Part shown: positions 4,275 to 44,715 of the stretch, piece after piece
How positions within the stretch are numbered: position 1 is the stretch's first letter
How the letters are laid out: each line of letters begins with the position of its first letter
From: a virus
Length of the DNA: 64,000 nucleotides
Virus record (IMG/VR): IMGVR_UViG_3300042566_002057
Span: 1-64,000 of that record
Reading direction: 5' to 3' (one strand)
Notes under the pieces: model-generated
Seen by the model: only the letters and a program-made list of their open reading frames with translations
Databases searched by the model: none
Told to the model about the DNA's origin: nothing
Translations under genes and position numbers: made by a program

Positions 4275-4499
4275 ATGAAAAAATTAATATTTGTTTTAGT
4301 TGTTTTGGTTTCTCTAACTTCTTGTAATGGTAGAAGATTTAATTTAAGAGTTTGTAGTGGTGATGGCATCGCTTATACAGAAACTTGGATTGAGTGTGAT
4401 TCTTTCCAGATGGTTTCCAGAGACGAAGCAGTTATCTGGGTAGATGGTCAACAGATGAGAATTTTTGGAGACCGAGGAATTAAACCTGAAACAAATTAA
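4275..4499 (+). CDS. small lipoprotein
   Basis: MKK + hydrophobic stretch + LTSC lipobox; TATATTTG promoter element just upstream. Confidence 0.75.
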   Translation: MKKLIFVLVVLVSLTSCNGRRFNLRVCSGDGIAYTETWIECDSFQMVSRDEAVIWVDGQQMRIFGDRGIKPETN

Positions 4500-5580: not shown

Positions 5581-6015
5581 TTATTTAATATCTCCTCTTT
5601 TTCTTAGAGTGTATAAAATCTGTTTTACTGTTTCTTCACTTAAATCTAATTCAATTGATAGTTGACTTACATCAGTTAGCCCTTCTTCATAAAGTTCTTT
5701 TACCATTTCCATATCATCTAATGTGAAGTCCTCAAATGTATAACCTTCTTTGATAAACTGATTAAAAGTTAAAACTTTCTCTTCAATTTTTTCTGGAAGT
5801 TTATCGTGTTTTGTTTTAGCAAAATCTCTTAATTTATTGATGGCTCTTTTTTTAGCCTTTTCTTTTGCAGTTTTACTTTTAGAACCTTCTGTTTCATTTT
5901 TGATAAATGATTTCGCAACATCTTTTGCTGCTTTTGGAACGTCTTTATTTTCACCAGTAGCGAAAGCATAAGCGGCTCCCATAAGTCTTTGTTGTGTTTT
6001 AGAACGCGATGGCAT
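5581..6015 (-). CDS. DUF3008-like protein with C-terminal HTH-like segment
   Basis: MPSRSKTQQRLMGAA...DFAKTKHDKLPEK resembles DUF3008; C-terminal LSIELDLSEETVKQIL is HTH-like. Confidence 0.6.
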   Translation of the reverse strand: MPSRSKTQQRLMGAAYAFATGENKDVPKAAKDVAKSFIKNETEGSKSKTAKEKAKKRAINKLRDFAKTKHDKLPEKIEEKVLTFNQFIKEGYTFEDFTLDDMEMVKELYEEGLTDVSQLSIELDLSEETVKQILYTLRKRGDIK

Positions 6016-6059
6016 AAGAAACTATATTTTTTACTATATATAGAAAAATTAAAATAGAT

Positions 6060-6272
6060 ATGAGTCAGTTAAGAAACAATGGTATCTACTCTAAAAACGA
6101 GTATGTTGGGAAAACTTTAGAAGAAGCTAGTAAATATGCTGAACAAGGTGGATTCATAATACGAATAGTAGAAAAAGAAGGTATACCACTTATGCTTACA
6201 CACGATGTAAAAGAAAATAGATTAAACTTTAGAACAAAAGGTAATAAAGTTGTTGATGTCTTTGGTGGATAG
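6060..6272 (+). CDS. potato-inhibitor-fold (I13/I78-like) peptidase inhibitor
   Basis: VGKTLEEA...LTHDVKENRLNF...VVDVFGG pattern (TxD...RL...V..V..G). Confidence 0.6.
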   Translation: MSQLRNNGIYSKNEYVGKTLEEASKYAEQGGFIIRIVEKEGIPLMLTHDVKENRLNFRTKGNKVVDVFGG

Positions 6273-6331
6273 AAAATAAATACTTATATTTATATGCCTG
6301 GTTTGGATATTTAAATTGAAAAATATTGAAA

Positions 6332-6384
6332 TAAATTTGGTAGAATTAAAACTTTTATCTAATTTTGTATAAAATAATGACAAA
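6332..6384 (+). promoter_or_regulatory. Bacteroidota-type promoter; 53-nt block repeated identically at 19826-19878
   Basis: TTTG 6336-6339, 20-nt spacer, TAATTTTG 6360-6367; AATATATA follows at 6401. Confidence 0.8.
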
Positions 6385-6415
6385 GGAAGAATAACTTTTT
6401 AATATATAAGAAATA

Positions 6416-6517
6416 ATGACAACAAATCGCACACATAAACATTTTAGTAAATCGAGCAAGTGGTTTAGCACCCAGTTCGGTACTGAAAAAGTATTGCGTG
6501 ATTTGACTACACTATAA
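6416..6517 (+). CDS. attenuator leader peptide 1, MTTNRTHKHFSKSSKWFSTQFGTEKVLRDLTTL (Phe/His/Trp, also Lys/Ser)
   Basis: 33-codon ORF before a terminator and the Phe/His/Phe/Trp tRNAs; AGTTCGG 6474-6480 is complementary to the terminator 5' arm. Confidence 0.85.
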   Translation: MTTNRTHKHFSKSSKWFSTQFGTEKVLRDLTTL

Positions 6518-6542
6518 GTAGTAAAATTAAATACAATATTTA

Positions 6543-6578
6543 AGGTCCGAACTCAAAAAGTTCGGACTTTTTTGTTTT
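6543..6578 (+). terminator. attenuator terminator 1
   Basis: AGGTCCGAACT-CAAAA-AGTTCGGACTT plus T-tract, directly upstream of tRNA-Phe. Confidence 0.9.
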
Positions 6579-6588
6579 ATAATAAATT

Positions 6589-6661
6589 GGAACGGTGGCA
6601 GATCAGGTGATTGCGCTGGACTGAAAATCCAGAGGAATGGGTTCGATACCCATCCGTTCCA
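6589..6661 (+). tRNA. tRNA-Phe(GAA)
   Basis: GGAACGG/CCGTTCC acceptor; CTGGA-CTGAAAA-TCCAG anticodon arm; TTCGA T-loop. Confidence 0.9.
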
Positions 6662-6738
6662 CGGAGTCCTGAAATAACAGGAAACCCCCACTCCCATATG
6701 GCAGCCAGTCCATTAACCTGGTGAAGTGGGGTTTATAT

Positions 6739-6812
6739 GGTGAATGTAGCTCAATCGGTAGAGCACTGGTTTGTGAAGCCAGAGGTAGCGGGATCGTAAC
6801 CCGTCGTTCACC
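6739..6812 (+). tRNA. tRNA-His(GTG)
   Basis: G-1 and C73; CTGGT-TTGTGAA-GCCAG; atypical T-loop ATCGTAA. Confidence 0.9.
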
Positions 6813-6817
6813 CAAAA

Positions 6818-6889
6818 GGAGACTTAGCTAAGTAGGTTTAGCGTCCGGTTGAAGCCCGGAAGAGGTCGGTTCGATTCCGTCAGTCTCCA
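6818..6889 (+). tRNA. tRNA-Phe(GAA)
   Basis: TCCGG-TTGAAGC-CCGGA; GGAGACT/AGTCTCC acceptor. Confidence 0.85.
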
Positions 6890-6896
6890 CTAAAAA

Positions 6897-6969
6897 GCGT
6901 CATTTGTGTAATGGCTTAGCATCTTCGGTTCCAACCCGAAGGGTCAGGGTTCGAGTCCTTGGTGACGCG
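6897..6969 (+). tRNA. tRNA-Trp(CCA)
   Basis: TTCGG-TTCCAAC-CCGAA; G73. Confidence 0.9.
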
Positions 6970-7063
6970 CAATTACAAGTATGTAATCCAATTTAACTCC
7001 GAATGAGTTAATTGAATGATGTAAGAAGATTTTAGAGTTTAATAATTATAAAATAGAAAAAAA

Positions 7064-7099
7064 ATGAAAAAGAAAATGGAAACTAAACGAAAACGTTAA
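7064..7099 (+). CDS. putative Lys leader peptide MKKKMETKRKR
   Basis: 11 codons with 5 Lys, followed directly by a hairpin (7100-7129) and three Lys tRNAs. Confidence 0.65.
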   Translation: MKKKMETKRKR

Positions 7100-7143
7100 G
7101 TGATGGCTTACTAAGTTATAAGTCATCACATCGGAAAAATTAT

Positions 7144-7216
7144 GACTTCGTAGCTTAGTAGGTAGAGCACCTGGCTTTTAACCAGGGGGTCGCGAGTTCG
7201 ATTCTCGCCGGGGTCA
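7144..7216 (+). tRNA. tRNA-Lys(TTT)
   Basis: CCTGG-CTTTTAA-CCAGG. Confidence 0.92.
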
Positions 7217-7227
7217 CAAGGTAATAA

Positions 7228-7315
7228 GCACCTATGGCTCAATTGGTAGAGCATCGCACTTTTAATGCGAGGGGTAGACGTAAGTCCGTTGAAGGTTCGA
7301 GTCCTTCTGGGTGCA
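7228..7315 (+). tRNA. tRNA-Lys(TTT) with long variable arm
   Basis: TCGCA-CTTTTAA-TGCGA; extended variable region containing GAC-GTAA-GTC. Confidence 0.85.
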
Positions 7316-7321
7316 CTAAAT

Positions 7322-7396
7322 GACTTCGTATCCGTAATTGGTTTCCGGACCTGACTCTTAATCAGGGATATGTGGGTTCGAGTCCCACCGGAGTCA
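7322..7396 (+). tRNA. tRNA-Lys(CTT)
   Basis: CCTGA-CTCTTAA-TCAGG. Confidence 0.88.
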
Positions 7397-7407
7397 CAAA
7401 TATAAAT

Positions 7408-7534
7408 GGGGATGTAGCTCAGTGGTAGAGAAAACTATCTCTTTTGAAATTTTACCTCGTGAGAGTGTTGATTGAAAGAGTTACTTCGTATATTTGAAAT
7501 TATAAGGTCGTGGGTTCGAATCCCACCATCCCCA
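7408..7534 (+). tRNA. tRNA of uncertain identity with a ~56-nt structured insertion after the D-arm
   Basis: Canonical GGGGATG/CATCCCC acceptor, D-arm and T-arm; insertion at about 7431-7487; irregular anticodon arm around TTGAAA. Confidence 0.65.
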
Positions 7535-7575
7535 CAAAAAGAAAAAGAAAAAATTAATATATAAAAAATAAGATT

Positions 7576-7650
7576 ATGAAAACTATTATGTCAACATCGA
7601 AAAGTTCTAGTCGCTCGTCAAAGATGAGGGAGGTTCGATCGTATTCATAA
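7576..7650 (+). CDS. attenuator leader peptide 3, MKTIMSTSKSSSRSSKMREVRSYS (Ser/Arg)
   Basis: 9 Ser and 3 Arg in 24 codons; GAGGGAGGTTCGA 7626-7638 pairs with the terminator 5' arm. Confidence 0.88.
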   Translation: MKTIMSTSKSSSRSSKMREVRSYS

Positions 7651-7673
7651 TAGTCATAATAAGATATTGTGTT

Positions 7674-7709
7674 AACCCTCGAACCTAAAGTTTGAGGGTT
7701 TTTTGTTTT
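7674..7709 (+). terminator. attenuator terminator 3
   Basis: AACCCTCGAAC-CTAAA-GTTTGAGGGTT plus T-tract. Confidence 0.9.
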
Positions 7710-7713
7710 ATAT

Positions 7714-7787
7714 AGTTCCATAGTTTAATTGGATAAAACACCGGATTACGGCTCCGGAGATTGAGGGTTCGAGTCCTTCTGGAACTA
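7714..7787 (+). tRNA. tRNA-Arg(ACG)
   Basis: CCGGA-TTACGGC-TCCGG. Confidence 0.9.
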
Positions 7788-7793
7788 CAAATT

Positions 7794-7880
7794 GGAAAAG
7801 TAAGAGCAGTTGGTCTAAGCTCGGCGGTCTTGAAAACCGTAGGCCCTAGTGGTGTGTGAGTTCGAGTCTCACCTTTTCCG
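7794..7880 (+). tRNA. tRNA-Ser(TGA)
   Basis: GCGGT-CTTGAAA-ACCGT; long variable arm; G73. Confidence 0.88.
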
Positions 7881-7885
7881 CAAAA

Positions 7886-7969
7886 GGAGAATAAACTAAT
7901 CTGGTGATTAGGACCGCCTGCTAAGCGAGTCGTACTTTATAGTATGGGGTTCAATTCCTCTGTTCTCCG
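7886..7969 (+). tRNA. tRNA-Ser(GCT)
   Basis: CTGCTAA loop; long variable arm; G73. Confidence 0.82.
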
Positions 7970-7975
7970 CTATTT

Positions 7976-8061
7976 GGAGAGTAAACTGATGAGGTCATCA
8001 GCCACGCCTGGAAAGCGTTGGGTGCGTTCAATCGTATGGGTTTCGAGTATTCTGCTCTCCG
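7976..8061 (+). tRNA. tRNA-Ser(GGA)
   Basis: CACGC-CTGGAAA-GCGTT; long variable arm; weak T-stem. Confidence 0.78.
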
Positions 8062-8070
8062 CAAAAATGA

Positions 8071-11000
8071 TTACACAACACCAGTTATTATACCACCAGT
8101 AACAGTAACTATTTGACCATCTGCACTAAATGTTCCTGTCCATCCACTTGATACCGCTGAATCGACATAACCTTTAGTAACAAGTGAGTAAGTAGAAAAA
8201 TTAGCGGTATAATCATCTGTATATACCAGTCCCTTTTGATTAGCATCTGTGACTAATAATCTATTGTCTGAACTTCCATCATTTATATTCTGATCGATAT
8301 TTGTAATTAATATACCAGTAGATAATGATCCATCAAATGCAAAAATTGATGTACTTTGGTTATCTACAAAGACCCTCGAATATGTAGATGAGTCATATGT
8401 TACCTTTAAGTCTATAGCTGTGCCAAAGTTGTATATTCTTGACTCATTCAAGTTATTGTAGACTTTGTTATCAATAAATACAGAAGCTGTCACTGAAAAT
8501 CTTCCTAAGTTATTGATATAAAAGTTCTTTAGATCTCCTTCAATAAAAACTTGTGATGTAAGTGTTCCACCTAATTCAATATTTCCCGAAATACTTTGTG
8601 TTAGACCATTTTCACCCTGAACTTTTTGTGAATCAACATATCCTTTAGTTACAAGTGAATAAGTTGTGAAGTTTCCTACATAATTACCATCATAAACAAT
8701 ACCTTTATTATTGATATTATCAACAACTATTAAAGTGTTATTTATCGAACCATCTGAAATTGCTTGAGATCCAGCATAAGTACTAATAATGCTACTATAT
8801 GTACCAACTCTTGATTCTATTTTAATAGTGTCCATCTCACCTACTAAACCGGATCCCGTTACACCAGGAGCTCCATATATGAGCAAACCACCTGAAATGT
8901 CATGTGCTAAAAATCTAAGTGTGTTAGGACCATGTATCAAAAGTGTTGAACTATTTAAAAATTGTGATCTTGATGAGAAATAAACACTCGAAGTTAATGA
9001 AATTCTAGATGCGCCTAAAAAATGCAAATTTTTGTTGTCTACTTGAACAGTTGTATCTTGAGAAAGTGTTCCACCTAGTCCAATCACTCCTGATGATACA
9101 TAACTTAGACCATTTCCTGGTGTAGTAGATGAAATTGAATCAACATACCCTTTAGTTACAAGTGAATAAGTAGTGAAATTTGCAGTATAATCAGATCTAT
9201 ATACTATACCCTTCTGACTAATATCATCAGCTACTATAATTCTATTATTTGTTGATCCATCGCTTAATGGTTGGTCTTGTGAGTGAAAATTTATTCCAGA
9301 GTATCCAACACCATCAAAATTATATATATTTAATACTCCTGGTGTAATATCTACAATTGAGTAAGTTCCACTAGGATCATCAACTCTAGTATAGTAATTA
9401 TCACCATCATTCCACTGTGCACTAGTATTTGTGGATGGAGAAAAAACTGTATTAACTATAAAAGCTGAAGCTGTGACTGAAAATCTACTAAAATCGTTAA
9501 AATATACATTATTATCATAACCGTCAATAATCACTGGTCCACTTAGAGTTCCTCCTAAACCAATGTATCCTGAACTAAAAGTAAGACCATTATTTACATA
9601 TTGTTGTTTTTCATCAACATATCCTTTAGTAACTAATGAGTAAGTAGTAAAGTTTGGAGAATAATCTCCAACATATACTATTCCTTTATTTGATACATCT
9701 GTGACTAATATATTATTATCCGATGAGCCATCACCAATTGGTTGTGTTTCGTTATGAACTGTAATAGACGATACTCCGTTATTACCCACACTTTCAATAT
9801 TTATTGTACCAATATTTATTCTTGTTCTAGAATAAGTTGCATTATCAATTGTTGCTACTATGTTTTGGTAATCAGCTTGTTGTAAATAAACTTGACTATA
9901 ATAATCAGATGATATAACTCTATTATCTATGTTGTTAGATGCGGTCATTGTAATTCTGTATGCATCTGATATCTCTAAATCATATCCCTGTCCATAGATA
10001 ATTGTATTTAGTGAAAGCACACCACCTAATCCAATTTTATTATCAGTCTGTGACAGACCATTCATCGCATCACTAACAATAGTTTGTTCAGAACCAGAAA
10101 GTCCTGCATTCCAGTATTGAGATGAAGAACTCCAGAATATTTTAGAATAAGTTCCATCTCCTAAATTAACTTCAATTCCAGCATCAATTGCTGGTCCGCT
10201 ATATGTTCCATTAAGAGTTATAAAATTATCCTCGACAACAAGATTTTCTGTATAAATTGTTGATGTAGTTCCTAAAATAGCTAAGTCACCTAAGATAGTA
10301 ACAGAGTCATTAAACTGTCTATTACCATCAATTATGGATTTAAGTGAAACTTGATTACTTCCATTTAATTCAATTGACGTATTATCTACTTGTGATAAGA
10401 AATTACTATCTACATAATTCTTATCTATTAATGAATAAGTAACAAAAGTAGCTGAGTAATCAAATGCGTATCTTAGTCCTTCTAAGTTTCCGGATATAAC
10501 TGTTGAGTTACCGAAATTCAAATTAAATACACTTGGTGAGTAAATAATCAAATCACTTGTATTCATATCAATATATGTCTCTGAAATAGAACCATTATTT
10601 GTTGATATTACGACATTACCACTTGTAAATCCTTCATCTAAGTATATTCTACCACCACCATTACCACTAACTAAAGATGTACCAGTACCCATTACTATAT
10701 TTTGACCCAACGAATCATTGCCCTGAGTTAGTACTTGTTCCAATGTTGGTGTTGTAGAGGCTGGGGCCGTTCCCCAGTAAGCTTGACCAGCACCATCTGT
10801 TAACAATACTTCTGATAATGAACCATCAACATTTGGTAGTTTATAAGCATTATTTATATTAACACTGTTACCTAAATAAACTGTATTTGATTCAGTAGCT
10901 GATAAATTCACACCTCCAATAATAACACTATTATAGATTCCTGATTCAATGAATGCTGACTCAGATGAAATTGATGTTATCGGTGACTGAACAGCTGGTG

Positions 11001-19805: not shown

Positions 19806-19918
19806 AAAATTAAAAATATTTTAATTAAATTTGGTAGAATTAAAACTTTTATCTAATTTTGTATAAAATAATGACAAAAACCTCGAAAGAGAGTAATAAC
19901 TTTTAATATATAACAACA

Positions 19919-20032
19919 ATGAGAACAAATAATACAAATATGATGAACCTGACACTCAATGTGGTGAATATTACGTTATGTAATATTAGACCGTCTGAGG
20001 GTTCCTTCCTATTTAGAAAATTTGTCTCGTAA
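19919..20032 (+). CDS. attenuator leader peptide 6, MRTNNTNMMNLTLNVVNITLCNIRPSEGSFLFRKFVS
   Basis: Codons 1-24 use only M,R,T,N,L,V,I,C, the amino acids of the 14 downstream tRNAs; TCTGAGGGTTC 19994-20004 pairs with the terminator 5' arm. Confidence 0.92.
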   Translation: MRTNNTNMMNLTLNVVNITLCNIRPSEGSFLFRKFVS

Positions 20033-43839: not shown

Positions 43840-44715
43840 AGATTCTTTGACTTCGGTCATTGATGAATGTAACGGCCGCTTATGGTCGATAAATAAACCT
43901 CGAAAGGGGGATAAAGTGGATACAAAAGCTAATTGTATCTGCGTCTTGAGAGTTCTTCGGAACAATTGAGGTCGAGTAAGCAAGTGGGGCACCACAAGTT
44001 CTGAGTAGTCGAGGGTAACACTGTAGACCAAATGAGTTTGTGACTGGGCAATTGTAGATTGTTCAGTTGACTTCGGAAGAGGAATAGGAATAACCCATAG
44101 GAATTTTGTAAGAAATAAAGACTCACCGGTTTTTACTATTGCGAGTTCCAACTCAAAAGGTGTCTTAAAGTTGAAAGACAATCAGTCGTACAGGTGGTGC
44201 TGTTGACTGACACTAATCTCTCTACCAAGAGAGTAGATAAACCGAAAGGTAAGTCGTGGTGAAGATATCTTGAAGAGTTGTGATGGAGGCATCACACGGA
44301 GTAGTCCAGTATTCTTGAGACCAAAAGTTTTGAGAGCTGAGAGGTGACCACTACTTCGACATATCTACTAGCACTAAATTTCTAACTGTTAATTGGAAAC
44401 ATTTAAAAAATAAGAAATCGAAAGTGTTACCTAGTTACTGATGAAAGGTACCTACTTAGTCGTGAGTGTTCACGGCCACTGAAGCTCGAAAGGCTGACGT
44501 GATTTCATCGAAAAACTTATAGAGGGTCGAACCTCGAATCAGCTCGCAAGGTTGAATAAGCGGATTAAATGGAGAGTAAACAGTAACTCAAGAAGTGGTT
44601 AGTCTAACTAACCGGTACTGACAGAATACTACTCAAAAGGTAGTGGATAAGAAGGGAAACAATAATCCAACTAAAGTTCTGTCGCCATAGGATGTAATCT
44701 CAGTCCTTTTTTTTT
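43840..44715 (+). ncRNA. large structured ncRNA, probably GOLLD-like
   Basis: About 870 nt without a plausible + strand ORF; GC-richer; many GNRA/TTCG hairpins; flanked by tRNAs; ends GGATGTAATCTCAGTCC + T9. Family assignment is from memory only. Confidence 0.65.

Follow-up and report, generated by a model that had tools for sequence, protein, structure and literature searches.

Can a phage sense how slowly certain codons are being read, and transcribe its own transfer RNA (tRNA) genes accordingly? This question is raised by a locus of a huge lake phage, within a window of 64,000 nucleotides (nt) that comprises positions 1-64,000 of the IMG/VR record IMGVR_UViG_3300042566_002057 and contains all 36 tRNA genes found in the 152-kb phage contig. 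In this locus, a short open reading frame (ORF) precedes an intrinsic terminator and a series of tRNA genes that starts with Phe, His, Phe and Trp (Table 1). We consider it likely that the locus is a working ribosome-mediated (leader-peptide) attenuator of the trp/his/ilv type that serves a phage tRNA operon. The phage would then probably make these tRNAs only when His, Lys, Phe, Ser, Trp and Arg codons are read slowly. The evidence comprises sequence, folding and the comparison of loci, and it includes the ORF itself, three alternative RNA structures with evidence of conservation and covariation, sensor codons that match the tRNAs, and a single promoter.

The composition of the leader peptide is strongly biased towards the amino acids of the downstream tRNAs. 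Of the 13 residues in codons 5-17, 12 are F, H, W, K, S or R (P=1.4e-6 against a phage proteome frequency of 0.27). A first-pass annotation of this DNA had placed a sensor ORF ahead of tRNAs Phe, His, Phe and Trp, and all of these could be located, the ORF at 6416-6517 and the tRNAs at 6589-6970. The bias extends beyond these three amino acids, as seven of the eight residues other than F, H or W are Lys, Ser or Arg (P ~1e-4). The corresponding codons can be decoded by tRNAs of the same transcript: CGC by Arg-ACG, AAA and AAG by Lys-UUU and Lys-CUU, AGT and AGC by a Ser-like tRNA with a GCU anticodon, and TCG by Ser-UGA. Six other leaders of the genome have unrelated sequences and follow the same codon-to-tRNA logic. 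When seven leaders were compared with seven tRNA sets within the window, the real assignment ranked first of 5040 permutations.

Downstream of the sensor, the RNA can adopt mutually incompatible folds. The antiterminator consists of three pairings, namely AGTTCGG (6474-6480) with CCGAACT (6547-6553), GTATTG (6491-6496) with CAATAT (6534-6539), and ATTTGACTAC (6501-6510) with GTAGTAAAAT (6518-6527), the last with one G/A mismatch. These pairings had been predicted to form one long hairpin with the stop codon at its apex, and ViennaRNA returned exactly such a structure over 6474-6553. The fold of 6472-6556 is a single hairpin of -24.5 kcal/mol (z -5.05; none of 200 shuffles was equally stable), with the UAA in a 7-nt apical loop. 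The terminator has a folding energy of -16 kcal/mol (z -5.5). Positions 6544-6553 belong both to the antiterminator and to the terminator 5' arm, and only one of the two structures can therefore exist at a time, as had also been proposed. The first-pass annotation was thus correct on pairings 2:3 and 3:4 and overlooked a third structure, the 1:2 hairpin, in which 6423-6457 pairs with 6475-6505 (segment 6423-6506, -25.0 kcal/mol, z -4.1). Added to 2:3 and 3:4, this hairpin would complete the four-region anatomy of a trp-type attenuator. The last Phe codon of the ORF, which had been counted as part of the sensor, has to be removed from it, since this TTC (6476-6478) lies inside region 2. Further, the terminators of six paralogous leaders in the genome are unrelated in sequence, and when six leader ORFs were compared with six terminator arms within the window, the real pairing ranked first of 720 permutations.

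Table 1. Features of the leader and of the tRNA operon behind it, in window positions
Feature	Position	Strand	Details
Promoter, Bacteroidota-type	6336-6367	+	TTTG, 20-nt spacer, TAATTTTG; motif scan; same module upstream of orthologous leaders
Leader ORF	6416-6517	+	33 codons, MTTNRTHKHFSKSSKWFSTQFGTEKVLRDLTTL, stop UAA 6515-6517
Region 1	6423-6457	+	5' arm of the putative 1:2 anti-antiterminator; overlaps sensor codons; from the minimum free energy fold of the naked leader
Sensor block	6428-6466	+	codons 5-17, R T H K H F S K S S K W F
Region 2	6474-6510	+	3' arm of 1:2 and 5' half of the antiterminator; GTTCGGTACT..GTATTG
Extended antiterminator (2:3)	6474-6553	+	80-nt hairpin, UAA 6515-6517 in apical loop
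Intrinsic terminator (3:4)	6542-6578	+	12-bp stem 6542-6570, CAAAA loop, UUUUUUGUUUU tail, U tract to 6578
tRNA-Phe (GAA)	6589-6662	+	begins 10 nt after terminator U tract
Element X, structured spacer RNA	6663-6739	+	77 nt, tRNA-Phe to tRNA-His
tRNA-His (GTG)	6740-6813	+	
tRNA-Phe (GAA)	6818-6890	+	
tRNA-Trp (CCA)	6897-6970	+	43 bits
Inner Lys/Arg mini-ORF with hairpin	7064-7129	+	MKKKMETKRKR, stop; 30-nt hairpin directly after the stop, without U tract
tRNA-Lys, three genes (TTT, TTT, CTT)	7144-7397	+	
tRNA-shaped RNA with ~55-nt insertion	7408-7535	+	tRNA model 45 bits; transfer-messenger RNA (tmRNA) model weak
Inner Ser/Arg leader with own terminator	7576-7706	+	MKTIMSTSKSSSRSSKMREVRSYS, stop; terminator stem 7674-7700
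tRNA-Arg (ACG), tRNA-Ser (TGA), two Ser-like tRNAs	7714-8061	+	Ser-like tRNAs with GCU and GGA anticodon loops

Relatives of the leader were gathered by nucleotide pattern search. The pattern used on metagenomes fixed the Trp-Phe codons and region 2 only, which left the His/Lys/Phe/Ser part of the sensor free to vary. The pattern TGGTTTAG..TTCGGTACT gave 30 viral matches, most of them by chance inside protein genes, and the leader-like ones were retained; the leader pattern had no match in 185,579 bacterial and archaeal genomes. A synteny search through an upstream protein of 70 amino acids matched two loci (L002, L003) that have no tRNA cluster nearby and were set aside. In total, 77 related loci with 55 distinct leader peptides were obtained. 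An intact ORF from ATG to stop, mostly of 30-35 codons, is present in 77 of 77, and all keep the terminator and the sensor block HKHFSKS(S)(K)WF. Wherever the sequence reaches far enough, Phe, His and Lys tRNAs follow downstream, as do Trp, Arg and Ser tRNAs. Counted from the ATG, the Trp codon is 15 codons away in 51 distinct peptides and 14 in the remaining four, and insertions and deletions in this interval comprise whole codons only. F, H, W, K, S and R together account for 87.7% of residues in the sensor block of the orthologs and for 33.8% after WF, compared with 27% in the phage proteome.

Two positions within the sensor are variable enough to be informative. At position -2 from Trp, Ser occurs in 33 of 55 peptides and is encoded by six different codons from both families (AGY and TCN), the remainder being N, F, H, A or T, and at position -1 only K, S or F occurs. 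These two positions indicate that the sensor is selected at the amino-acid level. The adjacent TTT AGT AAA TCG (FSKS) is almost invariant at the nucleotide level, as would be expected of an arm pairing with region 2. This invariance, together with a strongly conserved order of sensor residues beyond their composition, could also point to a switch that is real and is not operated by hungry codons. In such a case a protein or tRNA would bind the leader RNA in the manner of TRAP, PyrR or a T-box, or HKHFSKSSKWF would arrest the ribosome as a nascent peptide in response to a small molecule, as in TnaC or SecM. We consider this improbable. The codon invariance of FSKS is accounted for by the pairing with region 2, the variable positions remain mostly within the amino-acid set of the operon and use synonymous codon families, and the six other leaders of the genome apply the same codon-to-tRNA logic in unrelated sequence. 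In addition, the leader had no T-box match in Rfam at the gathering threshold or at E<=1 and no other Rfam match, the best leader families scoring ~21-23 bits against cut-offs of 55-59 (Thr_leader 20.7 bits versus 55; L20_leader 23 versus 58.7).

Conservation takes another form beyond the sensor. The nucleotides GTTCGGTACT..GTATTG of region 2 are read as ..FGTExVL.. in 34 sequences (F1) and as ..GSVLKEYC.. in 23 (F2), and region 2 is therefore conserved as RNA rather than as peptide. The locus thereby cleanly distinguishes the sensor, which is kept as peptide, from region 2, which is kept as RNA and read in two frames. In both frames, the stop codon falls near the middle of the span from region 2 to region 3 (0.34-0.57, median 0.49; 60 distinct sequences), and it lies 28-51 nt before CCGAAC in all orthologs measured.

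The alternative helices also covary. The base 5' of GTTCGG in region 2 and the base 3' of CCGAAC in region 3 form A-T in 24 sequences, G-C in 22 and G.T in 4, with a mismatch in 9. The corresponding base of region 4 remains A while this pair changes, so that where region 3 has C, the pair exists in the antiterminator only. Over the antiterminator helices of the orthologs, 96.3% of cells are paired and both partners are changed in five pairs, a level that none of 500 shuffles reached. For the terminator, 99% of cells are paired and six pairs show compensatory changes. Two divergent relatives have re-designed arms that nevertheless match (GAACTTGG/CCAAGTTC in L038 and GGTTCTGAT/ATCTGAATC in L036). 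The 1:2 hairpin has a median z of -3.1 across orthologs; its helix is the weaker point, as it has no observable covariation because the search patterns fixed both arms.

The consequence of a stalled ribosome was simulated, codon by codon, by folding the transcript without region 4 and with a ribosome footprint masked from -15 to +12 of the A site. As long as the A site is no further than Trp16, the terminator 5' arm pairs through its inner 7 nt with region 2 at a probability of 0.8-1.0. The probability of this pairing is ~0.5 with the A site at Phe17 and 0.1-0.3 from Ser18 onward. This step was reproduced in 11 orthologs besides the window, and the productive stall window stops where the conserved HKHFSKSSKW stops. 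The simulated geometry is that of an attenuator: a stall at a sensor codon frees region 2, while a ribosome at the stop codon blocks region 2 and leaves the terminator uncovered. With the ORF, sensor, terminator and antiterminator kept in 77 loci, with pairs that covary and with stalls up to Trp16 that free region 2, the attenuator proposed in the first pass is supported.

These observations suggest the following course of events. Transcription would start from the promoter at 6336-6367, and the 33-codon leader would be translated. When the six aminoacyl-tRNAs are plentiful, the ribosome would run through region 2 to the UAA at the antiterminator apex; region 2 would then be occupied, or recaptured by region 1, the terminator (6542-6578) would form and RNA polymerase would halt 10 nt before tRNA-Phe. 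When any one of the six is scarce, the ribosome would stall in codons 5-16 and cover region 1, which would allow region 2 (6474-6510) to pair with the emerging region 3. The resulting 80-nt hairpin would preclude the terminator, and polymerase would continue into Phe-His-Phe-Trp and then into the Lys and Arg/Ser blocks. The newly made tRNAs would relieve the stall and provide negative feedback on tRNA supply. What we infer in this scheme is that the leader is translated, that transcription is coupled with translation, that the antiterminator is trapped kinetically, and which physiological signal acts.

Several points weigh against such an attenuator. The terminator is always the equilibrium fold of the full-length RNA, also when a stalled ribosome is included. 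A thermodynamic switch was dropped for this reason, the antiterminator never being obtained at equilibrium in full-length RNA, and read-through would have to rely on kinetic trapping, with the antiterminator forming first. Kinetic trapping of this kind is normal for attenuators. The inner part of the antiterminator is modestly above shuffles across orthologs (median z -1.5). In naked truncated RNA at equilibrium, 2:3 beats 1:2 in 6 of the 12 orthologs examined in detail, which makes the anti-antiterminator role of 1:2 less secure. The leader ORF has no Shine-Dalgarno sequence, and the operon contains no tRNA for its Thr, Asn and Gln codons. Finally, invariance at pattern positions is not evidence, since the orthologs were found by nucleotide patterns.

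The dominance of the terminator in every simulated full-length state, and its strength, would also suit a constitutive and leaky damper that holds tRNA transcription at a fixed low level, the ORF and the complementary segments having no switching role. We consider this explanation improbable. It leaves unexplained a conserved ORF with a sensor of exactly the amino acids of the operon, covariation specific to 2:3, a stop codon at the hairpin apex in two frames, and the match of each paralogous leader to its own terminator arm.

Whether the leader can govern the whole tRNA cluster depends on where transcription begins. The promoter is the sole such motif on the + strand within 6000-8100, in a motif scan limited to the Bacteroidota host motif, and its -7 box lies 49 nt before the leader ORF. 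With a gap of 10 nt from the U tract to tRNA-Phe and no second promoter motif in 6000-8100, there is no room for another promoter. It might be argued that the ORF encodes a functional micro-protein, that the hairpin and U tract merely end this small gene, and that the tRNAs are transcribed from an unrecognised phage polymerase or promoter. Huge phages can bring their own transcription factors, to which a scan for the Bacteroidota host motif would be blind. Such an arrangement is nevertheless highly improbable, given that relatives use two frames for the C-terminal half of the peptide, that the U tract stands just 10 nt from tRNA-Phe, and that in relatives the tRNAs behind the terminator are separated from each other by 1-27 nt.

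The promoter region also shows a resemblance to another leader of the window. Positions 6336-6383, which hold the promoter and the beginning of the 5' untranslated region, comprise ~48 nt identical to 19830-19877, upstream of the leader at 19919. As two different leaders have an identical front end, the attenuators look modular, with a shared front and an exchanged sensor and terminator.

The first-pass annotation had read the extra Lys and Ser codons as a sign of nested control of one long transcript. This proposal gains support from the single promoter, from the seven of eight residues that are Lys, Ser or Arg, and from the operon layouts of relatives. Operon maps were made for ~30 relatives. 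The usual layout is leader, terminator, Phe/His/Trp/Lys tRNAs, Ser/Arg leader, terminator and Arg/Ser tRNAs, and the inner Ser/Arg leader is kept in 18 of the mapped relatives. In six relatives (L039, L098, L103, L036, L027 and L057), Lys, Arg and/or Ser tRNAs lie directly behind the first leader, spaced 1-27 nt, with no inner leader or terminator before them. The Lys, Ser and Arg codons of the first leader are the only possible sensors for those tRNAs, and these relatives serve as natural comparisons with this leader as sole gate. In a hand count, the sensor contains 4-5 Ser codons in 4 of 4 relatives without the inner Ser leader (L039, L098, L103, L036) and 2-3 in 17 of 18 loci with it (17 relatives and the window; Fisher P ~7e-4, the lineages not being independent). 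This is suggestive of a Ser count that tracks the operon layout.

Taken together, the comparison supports the view that the leader is a multivalent outer gate to the entire 6336-8061 transcript, to which inner gates have been added in the window. The outer gate would open when any of the six aminoacyl-tRNAs is short, and inner gating would fall to the Ser/Arg leader at 7576 and the Lys mini-ORF at 7064. The hairpin of the inner element before the Lys tRNAs ends ~14 nt before tRNA-Lys and is not a canonical terminator. The design is kept in relatives (MKTKLKYKR, METKRKR and MRTITIKRKCKR, each followed by a stop), with hairpin stems that are completely different and covary. The mini-ORF and hairpin may be a pause, processing or stability element. 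A mis-pairing of the 3' arm of this hairpin with the tRNA-Lys acceptor fitted the window by eye and did not fit the relative L001; it was dropped.

We lean, with some reserve, towards two-tier, demand-driven control of the operon. An outer any-of-six sensor would open a transcript of at least 13 tRNAs, and inner leaders (the Lys/Arg mini-ORF and the Ser/Arg leader) would choose which sub-blocks are completed. The phage could in this way replace exactly the tRNAs that run short in infection, e.g. after cleavage of host or phage tRNAs.

Several further RNAs lie within or near the operon. The two Ser-like genes (7885-7969 and 7975-8061) have a long arm and anticodon loops of GCU and GGA, respectively. 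ARAGORN left both uncalled even at a lowered threshold, and 7885-7969 scores 44 bits against the tRNA-Sec model of the tRNA clan, slightly below the cut-off. The tRNA-shaped RNA at 7408-7535 is kept in relatives, where it lies between Lys or Trp tRNAs and the Arg tRNA. Element X forms three hairpins and was found in 17 loci (10 distinct sequences), with a compensatory change in one hairpin from CCAG/CTGG to TCAG/CTGA. It has no Rfam match, and the small ORFs inside it are not conserved; its interpretation as a tRNA was rejected, as ARAGORN called none at low threshold.

Similarly, some tRNA-like genes of relatives escape the caller. A Trp-like tRNA with a CCA anticodon loop, the sequence ...GGTCTCCAAAACC... 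and an aberrant D region occurs in L031, L048, L039 and others, in the gap from tRNA-His to the Lys mini-ORF. As it is present where ARAGORN reports none, the absence of Trp from several operon maps is a caller artefact. A tRNA-His-like RNA with a GUG anticodon loop is found in L004 (365-468) and in L011 (minus strand, ~100 nt after the terminator of the leader). It is the first gene after the terminator in several relatives, has a ~30-nt insertion in the D-arm region and received no ARAGORN call.

Two other observations concern neighbouring elements. A full-length GOLLD RNA (Rfam RF02032, 299 bits) is located at 44297-44706 of the window between tRNA genes, a location that is known for GOLLD in phages. 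L001 (LR745206.1), an uncultured 635-kb phage related to that of the window, has a 14-codon ORF at 4313-4400 (MRALHTYKITIDLG, followed by a stop) whose 3' end, GATTGACTTGGG, complements the 5' arm of the next terminator. This ORF precedes a protein gene and not a tRNA, and is a possible case, from the same phage clade, of protein-gene attenuation.

The usual view is that tRNA genes of bacteria and phages are regulated at their promoters, through growth rate and the stringent response, and by processing. In the literature searched in full text, we found no description of leader-peptide attenuation of tRNA genes in bacteria or phages, and none of codon-by-codon feedback on tRNA transcription. 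The idea that the E. coli tRNA-Phe genes pheU and pheV have a Phe-rich leader or attenuator was rejected on reading the MG1655 loci, in which the promoters abut the tRNA and neither a leader ORF nor an attenuator is present. If the present interpretation is true, phages can gauge directly how fast codons are decoded and replenish specific tRNAs as needed. This would bear on why large phages carry tRNA sets, and on how they cope with tRNA-targeting defences or with their own degradation of host tRNAs. The locus adds a proposed hierarchy of an outer multivalent gate and inner gates, and it offers compact and modular codon sensors to synthetic biology.

Among known systems, the Bacteroid-trp motif is a short ORF with Trp codons and a terminator, upstream of trp biosynthesis genes. 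If this anatomy holds, the host phylum itself uses the leader-peptide mechanism. That motif lies before trp biosynthesis genes, whereas tRNA genes follow here, and it had no match in the Rfam scan of the window. The motif, a candidate cis-regulatory leader in Bacteroidetes, is Rfam RF01692 and is listed in PMC2864571. T-box riboswitches likewise sense tRNA charging through a terminator/antiterminator switch and control translation-supply genes; unlike the phage leader, they bind the tRNA directly and need no ORF.

The ilvGMEDA leader (Ile/Val/Leu) and the thr leader (Thr/Ile) are multivalent leader-peptide attenuators of enterobacteria, in which scarcity of any one aminoacyl-tRNA leads to read-through. 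The phage leader shares with them a short ORF that mixes the codons of several amino acids, the 2:3 and 3:4 alternatives and an intrinsic terminator, and its predicted 1:2 hairpin would correspond to theirs. It differs in that it controls tRNA genes, where theirs are biosynthetic enzyme genes, and in that it senses six amino acids. In addition, it is phage-borne, has a Bacteroidota-type promoter, places its stop codon in the apical loop of a long antiterminator and is followed by inner attenuators. In E. coli, the pheM leader attenuates pheST, which encodes Phe-tRNA synthetase, by means of Phe codons. As a leader-peptide attenuator with Phe codons in a supply loop for charged tRNA-Phe, pheM is the closest in purpose; it governs a synthetase gene and senses one amino acid. 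The trpL, hisL and pheL leaders follow the same mechanistic logic of competition between antiterminator and terminator, which is kinetic in the pheL attenuator (PMC3082878). Unlike the phage sensor, these leaders carry runs of the codons of one amino acid. To our knowledge, every described leader-peptide attenuator controls amino-acid biosynthesis or synthetase genes, whereas the genes downstream of this leader are tRNAs. The proposed mechanism is known in kind; what is new is its target, the tRNA genes, and its wiring.

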